Origin: a virus
Taxonomy: Duplodnaviria; Heunggongvirae; Uroviricota; Caudoviricetes
IMG/VR virus record: IMGVR_UViG_2721755662_000006
Length of the DNA stretch: 46,008 nt
Direction: 5' to 3' (one strand)
Shown: positions 42,001-45,000 of the stretch, piece after piece
Position numbering within the stretch: position 1 is the stretch's first letter
Layout of the letters: each line of letters opens with the position of its first letter
Program-made: the position numbers

Positions 42001-45000
42001 CATTTTCGGAGGGCAGCAGTGAGTTCAGCGTTTGCACTGATGATGACGGTTTTTCTTATAACAGGTGAGCCACAGAATGTGATTACCGGAATTTATGCCA
42101 GTAAAGGATCCTGCCTCCAGGCAAGAGACGAGCAAAAAATTTCTGGTGAATGCCTCCCGTTAAACAAAGTATCGCTGTACCTGAATAACGAAATACCGGC
42201 TGGATAACCCGCCAGCCATATTAACGCCATACCCGTTGATTAAGTATGCCAGCAATGGCAGGGATTCGTACAACCTTAAAATAGTTATGAGGTTTATCAA
42301 TGAGCACTGATAAAGAAGAAATTGCACTGTATTACGAAGCCAAAAATGACAAAGTCAGAAAACGCCTTGGGATTAAAGGCGGTTTTTACTGGCGCACAGC
42401 AAAAAAATTATCGGTTGCAATATCACGGGGTGTTGTCGCAATGGACGATGCTGGATTTGACGAAGAGGATTTCAAAAAACCTGTTCGCGTGAATTTGCCC
42501 ATTGTTAATGACCTGCCGCCTGAAGGTGTGTTTGATACCGAATTCTGCAACCGCTATGAAAAAGGCGGAGAAGATGGCATCACAATGATATTTATAGCGC
42601 CTTCCCCCTCAGTTCAGGACAAACCAGCCAGCACTGACAATACCAACGTCAATGGCGAAGACATGGCTGAGATTGAGGATAATATGCTCCTGCCGATTTC
42701 CGGTCAGGAACTGCCCATTCGCTGGCTTGCGCAACATGGCAGCGGAAAACCGGTAACGCACGTTTCACGGGAAGAACTTCAGGCATTACATATCGCACGA
42801 GCTGAAGAACTGCCTGCTGTTACTGCCCTGGCTATTTCCCACAACACAAAGCTGCTCGACCCGCTGGAGATTCGCGACCTTCAAAAACTGGTACGCGACA
42901 CAGACAAAGTTTTCCCTAATCCCGTTAATTCCAGTCTGGGGTTAATGACTGCTTTTTTCGAAGCATACCTGGACGCTGACTATACCGATCGAGGTCTGCT
43001 GACAAAAGAGTGGATGAAAGGAAATCGTGTTTTACACATCAGCCGCACGCCATCCGGCGCTAATGCTGGCGGAGGAATTCTTACCGATCGCGGTGAAGGT
43101 TTTGTCCACGATGATGCGTCAGTGGAACGTGACGTTGCCGCTGGCGTTCTGGCCCGTTCAATGGACATCGATATTTACAATCCACATCCGGCACACGCCA
43201 AACGCATTGAAGAAATCGTTTCAGAGAATAAGCCGCCCTTTTCTGTTTTTCGTGACAAATTCATCGCCATGCCTGGTCACCTGGATTATTCCCGCGCGAT
43301 AGTGGTTGCGTCCGTGAAAGAAGCACCAATTGGTATCGAGGCTACTCCCCACCGTGTTACCGAATATCTGAACAAAGTACTGACCGAAACCGACCATGCC
43401 AACCCTGATCCAGAAATCGTGGATATTGCCTGCGGTCGCTCCTCTGCTCCAATGCCGCAGCGTGTAACAAAAGAAGGAAAACAGGATGATGAAGAAAAAC
43501 CGCAGCCAACTGGCGCAATGGCAGATGAACAGACAACGACTGAAGCAGTGGAACCGGATACAACTGAACATAATCAGGACACGCAGTCGATGGATGCTCA
43601 GCCACAGATAAATTCTGTTGATGCGAAATATCAGAAACTGCGTGCAGAACTCCATGAAGCCAGGAAAAACATTCCCCCCAAAAATCCTGTCGATGCAGAT
43701 AAATTACTGGCTGCTTCTCACGGAGAATTTGTTGAAGGGATTAGCGATCCGAATGATCCGAAATGGGTGAAGGGGATTGAAACCCGCGATTCTGTGAACC
43801 AGAACCAGCACGAATCGGAACAAAACGAGCCGGAAACGAAACAGCCTGAACCAGAAGAGCAACAAGAACCGGAAAAAGTCTGCACCGCCTGCGGTCAGAC
43901 CGGCGACGGCAACTGTCCTGACTGTGGCGCGGTAATGGGCGACGCAACATACCAGGAAACATTCAACGAAGAAAGCCAGGATGAAGCCCGGGAGAAAGAT
44001 CCAGAGGAAATGGAAAGTGCCGTATACCCGAACAAGGAGTGCTCCGAAGGCGATCAACATGCCAATGGCAATAATGAAACAGGCGAGACAGCAAATCCCT
44101 TAATTAAGGTGAACGGTCATCACGAAAGCACATCCACCAGCAGGTTGTGGCACCATCTGATGATTGACCTTGAAACAATGGGCAAAAATCCTGATGCGCC
44201 AATAAACGCTCTGGCCGGTAAGTTTTTTGATCCGGCAACCGGAGAGATGGGGCCAGAATTCAGCAAAACTATCGATCTGGAAACCGCGGGCGGAGTCATC
44301 GATCGGGACACCATTAAGTGGTGGCTGAAACAGTCACGGGAAGCACAATCAGCCATTCTGACCGATGAAATCCCGTTGGATGACGCACTGTTGCAATTAC
44401 GGGAATTTATCGACGAAAACTCCGGTGAATTTTTTGTTCAGGTCTGGGGAAATGGAGCCAACTTTGACAACGTAACTTTACGCCGTTCATATGAACGGCA
44501 GGGGATCCCCTGCCCATGGCGTTACACCAATGATCGCGATGTAAGAACGATGGTTGCTCTGGGACTGGTGATGGATTTCGATGCTCGAAGTGTCATCACA
44601 TTTGAGGGTGAACGCCATAATGCCCTGCACGATGCGCGTTACCAGGCAAAATACGTTTCAGCTATCTGGCAAAAACTGTTCCCGAATCAGGCTGATTTTT
44701 AATGTTCAACCCATATCGCCGCCCACCAGCTATAGTGGCGGCGGTCATGCTGTAAGGCACGTGACCACATGTACGAATTAACTCTATCGCCAGCAGAAAT
44801 TCAAGAGATCACGAGATACGAACGGTATACAAAACAGCAACAACAGTTAAGGTTGCACGGTATCCCATTTGTACCCGGTCCTAAAAACGAACCAATAGTT
44901 CTTCGCAGTGATGTCCCGCGCGGACTGACTGCGATACCGAAAGTATCTGAACTGGTTTCTGCTGACCCCGATTTTGAGGCGCTGAACAATGGGAAGACCA

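Follow-up and report, generated by a model that had tools for sequence, protein, structure and literature searches.

Which kind of nuclease is encoded by a prophage gene whose product resembles RecE over most of its length, carries a DEDDh 3'-5' exonuclease domain in place of the RecE nuclease, and has no RecT beside it? The question is raised by an 800-amino-acid (aa) open reading frame (ORF) near one end of the IMG/VR record IMGVR_UViG_2721755662_000006, a stretch of 46,008 nucleotides that is called the window throughout. The window is a Stx2a-converting lambdoid prophage of E. coli and showed 100% identity with a region of strain FORC_069 that is integrated beside yccA. The data showed that the gene is a catalogued combination of two known kinds, a RecE scaffold and a DexA-type head. 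On balance, we think it probable that its product is an annealase-independent 3'-5' DNA exonuclease made from an early operon in lytic growth, and an intact member of a common, modular family of prophage nucleases.

The RecE-like part was delimited by BLASTP alignment with RecE of E. coli K-12. Residues 58-602 aligned with residues 50-591 of K-12 RecE with 411 identities in 545 positions (75%), and nothing significant was found beyond. A sequence-only reading of this DNA had taken the first ~570 residues as RecE-like; the likeness stands, but residues 1-57 do not belong to it and it extends to residue 602. The leader of 57 residues was 82% identical to that of CFT073-type proteins, and it also occurs on relatives with a PD-(D/E)XK head. 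At the DNA level, identity to Rac recE was 84% over window positions 42638-44104 and ended at 44104, which is codon 602. This end coincides with the boundary of the RecE nuclease domain, placed at residues 564-866 by a review in which the N-terminal region of RecE is described as "of unknown function" (PMC11611040). Pfam PF06630 (Exonuc_VIII) matched residues 56-189 (E 9.1e-34), and the NCBIfam RecE equivalog PRK09709 gave 1073 bits, below its cut-off of 1269, with model positions 1-602 of 877 matched. The folded scaffold (residues 1-390) had no recognisable relative among solved structures. The zinc-ribbon-like motif and its acidic setting, both picked out by eye before, were located at residues 528-543 (CxxC at 528 and 539) in a region rich in Asp and Glu (12-15 acidic versus 2-3 basic residues per 50), and the motif is conserved in K-12 RecE. 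A helix precedes it, and helix, motif and acidic linker make up the shared middle segment. The motif was modelled by AlphaFold2, in a model covering residues 520-800, as a small beta-ribbon with a predicted local distance difference test (pLDDT) score of 57-69, and it gave a weak, below-threshold match to Pfam DZR (E 0.13).

The C-terminal part was examined by Pfam scan, structure modelling and fold search. PF16473 (Rv2179c-like 3'-5' exonuclease) matched residues 618-790 from end to end (profile positions 1-177 of 177, E 1.1e-59, 201.5 bits versus a threshold of 27), which bears out the proposal that a DEDDh head with three motifs replaces the RecE nuclease. PF12684, the PD-(D/E)XK domain that K-12 RecE has at residues 615-850, was not found in the window protein by Pfam, and the RecE nuclease head was not found in the 46-kb window by tblastn (best E 0.47). 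The motifs of the head are D623-L-E625, N718-x3-F722-D723 and H773-x4-D778. The residues D623, E625, D723, H773 and D778 align to D7, E9, D119, H186 and D191 of T4 DexA, and these five catalytic columns were conserved in 53-54 of 54 family members. In the AlphaFold2 model, residues 617-794 have an RNase H-like DEDD fold with pLDDT above 90. The top Foldseek matches of the head were T4 DexA (PDB 8KEN and 8KEL, E ~4e-11), followed by RNase T, Cap18 and Orn. T4 DexA, which belongs to PF16473 over its full length, was the best match in the PDB by both sequence and fold; however, it is a standalone protein of 227 aa from a virulent phage, whereas the window head is the C-terminal domain of a temperate-phage protein, and the identity between the two was ~22-24%. 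According to the alignment, DexA W152 is replaced by Thr743 in the window head (the family column holds W in 16, T in 10 and Y in 10 of 54 members) and DexA D90 is retained as Asp695. For the position of DexA D169 two alignments disagree: phmmer aligns an Asp and MAFFT aligns Val757.

One of the closest known systems is RecE itself (exodeoxyribonuclease VIII, of the Rac prophage in K-12). The Exonuc_VIII domain, the CxxC...CxxC motif and the acidic linker are common to both proteins, and both genes lie in a leftward early operon running toward xis-int. However, Rac RecE has a PD-(D/E)XK 5'-3' head (PF12684, PDB 3H4R) and is paired with recT, while the window protein has the DEDDh head, a different leader and no recT. 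The same difference separates it from two-component exonuclease-annealase recombinases such as lambda Red and RecET, in which a 5'-3' exonuclease works with an annealing protein. The window was searched as a whole for such a partner. RecT was not found anywhere in the 46 kb (tblastn, best E 8.8), and Bet, lambda Exo, Erf, Sak4, single-stranded DNA-binding protein (SSB), Gam and Abc1/2 gave no tblastn match at E<=0.01. Neither the Prokaryotic Genome Annotation Pipeline (PGAP) nor a PHROG scan of the early ORFs found an annealase. The earlier statement that a RecT- or Bet-like annealase is missing, made from the adjacent genes, thus applies to the whole window.

The position of the gene was determined from its neighbours. 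The two genes after it had been read as a DUF4224 ORF and int; the DUF4224 product is an excisionase according to PHROGs, and the next gene encodes a tyrosine integrase. The upstream genes have the same order as in K-12 Qin, CFT073, O157, Tritos and mEp460. The exonuclease gene comes last in this leftward operon, which is under repressor control, and lies directly 5' of xis-int.

The sequence-only reading implied that the gene is rare, and this did not hold. DNA of the DEDDh head was present in 4041 of 5426 complete E. coli genomes, with up to 7 copies per genome, versus 1736 of 5426 for the RecE PD-(D/E)XK head, which was accompanied by an adjacent recT in every sampled row. Deposited proteins of 99-100% identity carry both Pfam domains (PF06630 and PF16473), the public protein P0121 is 100% identical to the product of the 800-aa ORF, and PHROG families exist that cover the architecture of RecE scaffold plus DEDDh head. 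A search with residues 1-470 gave only matches of at least 99% identity, and the diversity of the family was obtained from an exhaustive search of representatives at 50% identity. PF06630 was present in 43, PF16473 in 20 and PF12684 in 13 of the 55 long representatives, and according to Pfam and local module mapping, leaders, N-terminal modules, middle segments and heads are combined in every possible way. Because both head types recur on the scaffold down to 25-45% identity, the gene family is, by these comparisons, long-standing, modular and very common in lambdoid prophages. The earlier notion of a domain swap therefore holds in that the RecE scaffold bears a different head, but not in the sense of a one-off event. 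The CFT073 protein has the same architecture, with 71% identity end to end; in the proteins of O157:H7, Tritos and mEp460 the likeness is confined to residues ~465-800, and the N-terminal module is a different one. The ratio of nonsynonymous to synonymous substitution rates (dN/dS) was 0.13-0.15 in the head, 0.17-0.23 in the middle and 0.24-0.32 in the scaffold, with a range of 0.13-0.39 over all segments, and the whole gene is under purifying selection. The viable phages Tritos, mEp460 and vB_EcoS-640R1 retain the intact gene at the same operon position. One representative of 703 aa (P0243) has a RecE-type scaffold at residues 1-519 joined straight to RecT at 516-703 and lacks a nuclease head; a deletion or fusion, or else an assembly or annotation artefact, would account for it.

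K-12 was also examined for remnants of the DEDDh-headed family. Its Qin prophage has the same operon (dicA-ydfABC-dicF-dicB-ydfD-ydfE-intQ), with ydfE in the slot of the window gene. The ydfE pseudogene (4579-5499 of the extracted Qin locus, L006) showed 89% identity over 255 aa to the N-terminus of an 823-aa DEDDh-headed protein of O157. To judge by this alignment, ydfE is the K-12 remnant of the family, cut by IS2; it has a B-type N-terminal module, without similarity to the N-terminal module of the window protein. K-12 exoD in DLP12 was considered as a remnant of the same gene family and was ruled out, as the translated pseudogene gave no match to the window protein. Literature searches on ydfE/Qin, dicB/ydfD and DEDDh prophage exonucleases returned nothing on the window protein.

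Next, the occurrence of the head was surveyed with one genome per species, which gave 80 loci from Enterobacterales, Aeromonas and a few others. The head was fused in 28 loci (ORFs of 641-851 aa containing scaffold modules) and standalone in 52 (161-290 aa). Integrase followed 278-359 bp after the stop codon of the fused gene in all 26 loci with enough sequence, and none of the 28 fused genes had RecT, Bet, Erf, lambda Exo, the RecE head, SSB, Sak4 or phrog_724 within 10 kb on either side. Missing RecT is the rule for all 28 fused genes surveyed and not a local loss. Standalone heads had an integrase within 1.5 kb downstream in 15 of 49 loci and a recombination-type neighbour within 3 kb upstream in 15 of 52. 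These neighbours were Erf and/or SSB, the latter directly upstream with a gap of 9 bp (L071, L075, L088, L089, L092, L098), a Sak4-like annealase (L080, L083, L093, L095) or phrog_724, "recombination-associated exonuclease" (L063, L072, L082, L086, L087). Such gene contexts suggest a link of the head lineage to DNA-end or recombination functions, and the fused form is solitary. A deoxynucleoside monophosphate (dNMP) phosphatase gene (phrog_318) lay ~1.4 kb upstream of the standalone head in 13 loci. In an Enterobacter prophage (L019 4967-7001), a head ORF of 239 aa follows a small ORF and ~2 kb without a called gene, a stretch that is probably a decayed scaffold region.

Chi sites (GCTGGTGG) were counted in the window because a recent study of lambdoid phages bears on this gene (PMC12315714, Genome Research 2025). 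It reports DnaQ-like 3'-5' nucleases in early-left operons, often very near int, and describes Tritos as the prototype of a nuclease-only module, rich in Chi and without annealase, SSB or anti-RecBCD; phages without their own recombination system are proposed to use host RecBCD through abundant Chi sites. Its main text has no description of a fusion between a RecE-type scaffold and a DnaQ head. The window holds 12 Chi sites versus 2.37 +/- 1.61 expected, a five-fold enrichment, and none of 100 shuffles reached 12. The strand split was 9/3, with the majority on the strand of the structural genes, which is equivalent to the top strand of lambda; that of Tritos was 9/2. Seven of the nine majority-strand sites lie between the lysis genes and int. 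One mark of class B of that study is the presence of at least four Chi sites on the strand equivalent to the lambda top strand, and because of its nine same-strand sites the window prophage is placed in the Chi-rich, annealase-less class, which it fits as a Tritos-type, nuclease-only member. An annealase, an SSB and an anti-RecBCD gene were likewise not found in Tritos by our searches. The Tritos orthologue is 80-85% identical over residues 471-800 and has the same neighbours (dicB-ydfD-exo-xis-int), but it carries a YdfE-type N-terminal module in place of the RecE-like one. The Chi site at 44134-44141 (minus strand) lies 30 nt past the RecE/DEDDh junction (44104/44105), where the linker reads Ser-Thr-Ser. 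The Tritos orthologue carries a Chi at the corresponding position (L018 27079, plus strand), and a second Chi of the window (44723-44730, minus strand) is located between the stop codon of the exonuclease gene and xis. A Chi recombination hotspot at the mosaic junction might have promoted head exchange, or the Chi position might merely reflect shared ancestry.

Taken as a reading of function, these results suggest the following. The head would be a Mg2+-dependent two-metal exonuclease that removes nucleotides from free DNA 3' ends, by analogy with DexA. Its synthesis would follow induction or infection and accompany that of DicB, Xis and Int, and the enzyme would act alone on DNA ends in lytic growth. 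Since its polarity is opposite to that of RecE and no annealase is available, it is not expected to be the resecting half of an exonuclease-annealase pair. For recombination-dependent growth, phages of the Chi-rich class are believed to depend on host RecBCD, Chi and RecA; trimming or editing of 3' tails is accordingly the most plausible task of the enzyme. Scavenging is a further candidate role. Both head types are probably brought to one and the same target by the scaffold, for example DNA ends or a host factor.

Several points weigh against this reading. PMC12315714 calls the presence of 3'-5' DnaQ-type exonucleases curious; because such enzymes usually inhibit homologous recombination, a role in favour of recombination is not obvious. 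RNA is a possible substrate, since PF16473 is named after an exoribonuclease. The scaffold as a "delivery platform" is a guess, because no fold relatives of it were detectable. Promoter and terminator scans around the exonuclease gene performed no better than on shuffled sequence and were not used, so transcription from the repressor-controlled operon is predicted from gene order only. We infer the role of the protein as a whole, from activity and polarity to substrate (DNA or RNA) and expression.

The rival explanations were weighed against the same evidence. The likeliest of them is prophage defence of the type named HREX, in which the DexA-like head would degrade the 5-hydroxymethylcytosine (5hmC) DNA of superinfecting T-even phages and spare host DNA. 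It draws on a study in which DexA was solved and its E. coli homologue EcD digested 5hmC DNA, including that of T4, and protected against T4 when expressed from a plasmid (PMC12153337, Nucleic Acids Research 2025); sequence and fold both mark the window head as a DexA homologue, and the "bacterial" DexA homologues of that study are commonest in Escherichia, where the head domain is a prophage gene. We nevertheless regard defence as unlikely here. The gene stands at the far end of a repressor-controlled leftward operon beside xis-int and not in the position of a lysogen-expressed moron, viable free phages carry it, and PADLOC defence models gave no match for the exonuclease protein or its operon neighbours. 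The head has Thr743 in place of DexA Trp152, which the study ties to 5hmC recognition and found to be needed on T4 DNA, and it keeps as Asp695 the Asp90 position that is tied to oligomer state and whose loss defines the "defence" dimer form. EcD belongs to the same DexA-like family, abundant in Escherichia; however, it was studied by plasmid over-expression of an isolated protein of ~180-190 aa, whereas the window head is fused. It appears to fall in a standalone Salmonella/Citrobacter-type clade only ~55% identical to the window head, a placement suggested by its Ala78; when EcD (HAK9828821.1) was sought among the retrieved homologues via this residue, no exact candidate was found. At the other extreme is the view that the gene is a decaying chimeric pseudogene without function. 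Broken copies do occur (K-12 ydfE cut by IS2, and a frameshifted copy at L010), and PGAP marks several structural genes of the window prophage as frameshifted, yet an intact 800-aa ORF, purifying selection in every segment, invariant catalytic residues, and intact orthologues in 28 surveyed loci and in viable phages make this view extremely improbable.

Two further explanations concern the partner and the substrate. The protein could be a functional RecE analogue, the resection half of a pair whose annealase is unrecognised or is supplied by the host or another prophage (Rac RecT, RecA). Its gene stands where the early-left operon has its recombination module, ~545 residues are shared with RecE, the same head adjoins recombination-type genes such as Erf-SSB or Sak4 in 15 of 52 standalone loci, and in PMC12315714 tightly packed DnaQ genes, that of epsilon34 among them, are counted as members of Rec modules. 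But an exonuclease of DEDDh polarity, opposite to RecE and lambda Exo, would destroy and not create the 3' tails used by annealases and RecA; none of six annealase types tested was present within 10 kb of the 28 fused genes, in the window or in Tritos; and the part of RecE that is missing is exactly its RecT-interacting nuclease head. This explanation is accordingly given only a small chance. A role in anti-defence or host takeover, with action on other 3'-ended nucleic acids such as immune complementary DNA or multicopy single-stranded DNA, guide or signalling oligonucleotides, or RNA, has a low probability in our view. Early expression, which we infer, would suit it, as would the Pfam name of the domain, an exoribonuclease, and the make-up of the DEDDh superfamily, which includes oligoribonucleases, RNase T and Cap18, associated with the cyclic-oligonucleotide-based anti-phage signalling system, all among the fold matches. 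However, DexA, the closest solved relative, is a DNA exonuclease, and standalone heads keep recombination, SSB and nucleotide-metabolism neighbours (the dNMP phosphatase of 13 loci), not known anti-defence genes. Our preference therefore stays with the lone early-operon DNA exonuclease.

A broader version of this preferred reading is put forward as speculation, and we consider it unlikely. The RecE N-terminal region would be an autonomous platform that places a nuclease head on a specific target, for example DNA ends left by RecBCD processing or by packaging, or a factor of host recombination or replication. Phages would choose the head by strategy. A PD-(D/E)XK head with RecT would replace host recombination; a lone DEDDh head would trim 3' tails and in this way tune the RecBCD-Chi-RecA recombination of the host on Chi-rich genomes.

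Whatever the exact function, RecE, the namesake of the family, is the minority form, and in E. coli the scaffold far more often bears an exonuclease of opposite polarity and no annealase. Because the commoner form lacks an annealase, this argues for a role of the scaffold independent of RecT. To our knowledge, the RecE N-terminus is known only to enhance linear-linear recombineering. The natural head swap is a natural experiment on this long-unexplained region and, if the platform view is true, a direct handle on its role. No experiments on the full-length protein were found in the searched literature, although about three in four complete E. coli genomes carry the gene. The results also add molecular detail to the recently defined Chi-rich lambdoid phages without their own recombination system, Shiga-toxin prophages included.

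Two caveats arise for the HREX study. What it calls "bacterial" DexA homologues are, in E. coli, genes of prophage early operons, and at least some short E. coli ORFs are fragments of broken fusion genes, which bears on the homologue collection in PMC12153337, where prophages are nowhere mentioned. For these reasons the native role of E. coli DexA homologues may not be defence. The 183-aa "standalone" DexA-like ORF of E. coli (P0079) is such a fragment, of a frameshifted fusion gene (L010 737-3127; also L011-L013), in which residues 465-568 and 604-800 of the window protein match in different reading frames. This ORF occupies the same prophage slot next to yccA and is preceded by an N-terminal module of a third type (456 aa, no Pfam match).

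The features of the window are listed in Table 1.

Table 1. Coordinates of the exonuclease gene, its parts and other features in the 46,008-nucleotide window
Feature	Position in window	Strand	Basis or remark
Whole exonuclease gene, 800 aa	42300..44702	+	ORF list; PGAP label "exonuclease", RefSeq WP_088888718.1 in E. coli FORC_069
Leader, residues 1-57, not RecE-like	42300..42470	+	BLASTP, dN/dS, module map of representatives
Folded N-terminal scaffold, residues 1-390	42300..43469	+	Three confident blocks, ~1-100, 113-250 and 260-390
RecE-homologous scaffold and middle, residues 58-602	42471..44104	+	75% identity to K-12 RecE 50-591
Zinc-ribbon-like C528-x2-C531 ... C539-x2-C542	43881..43925	+	Sequence motif, model, weak Pfam match; conserved in K-12 RecE
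Acidic linker, predicted disordered, residues ~550-613	43947..44138	+	pLDDT ~30; composition; spans RecE/DEDDh junction 44104/44105
DEDDh 3'-5' exonuclease head, residues 618-790, DexA/Rv2179c clade	44151..44669	+	Pfam PF16473, Foldseek
Catalytic codons	D623 44166-44168; E625 44172-44174; D723 44466-44468; H773 44616-44618; D778 44631-44633	+	
Upstream part of early-left (pL-type) operon	39190..42207	+	cI-like repressor, relBE-like pair, DUF1391/ydfA-like, 133-aa ORF, dicB, DUF1482/ydfD-like
Excisionase (DUF4224), immediately 3' of exonuclease gene	44769..45020	+	phrog_1266 excisionase, E 1e-19; PGAP
Tyrosine integrase, prophage end; chromosomal yccA next	44989..46008	+	PGAP annotation of identical FORC_069 region
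Nine same-strand Chi sites	16080, 21005, 23071, 30236, 30553, 33509, 38556, 44134, 44723 (span 16080..44730)	-	
Frameshifted or partial structural genes	3276-6970, 12271-12573, 13038-13785, 15517-17541	-	PGAP

Some further observations were made on the rest of the prophage. Four structural genes of the identical region in FORC_069 are annotated by PGAP as frameshifted or partial, namely those for gpJ, tail assembly protein T, a tail protein and a protease/major-capsid fusion. Particle formation by the Stx2a prophage may therefore be defective, provided that the frameshifts are neither programmed nor due to sequencing errors. In the gap 5' of dicB (41552-41866, plus strand), Rfam gave no match to DicF at the gathering threshold or at E<=1, and a sub-threshold match to the STnc100 small RNA was obtained (33 bits versus a gathering score of 47, E 1.9e-5). 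The gap showed 78% identity to the dicF small RNA region of K-12 Qin and 77% to the part of Rac that precedes kilR. A relB/relE-like toxin-antitoxin pair (39708-40189, plus strand) is located between the cI-like repressor gene and the remaining leftward operon, and it is missing from those otherwise similar prophages whose match starts only at query position 293 (window position 40292).

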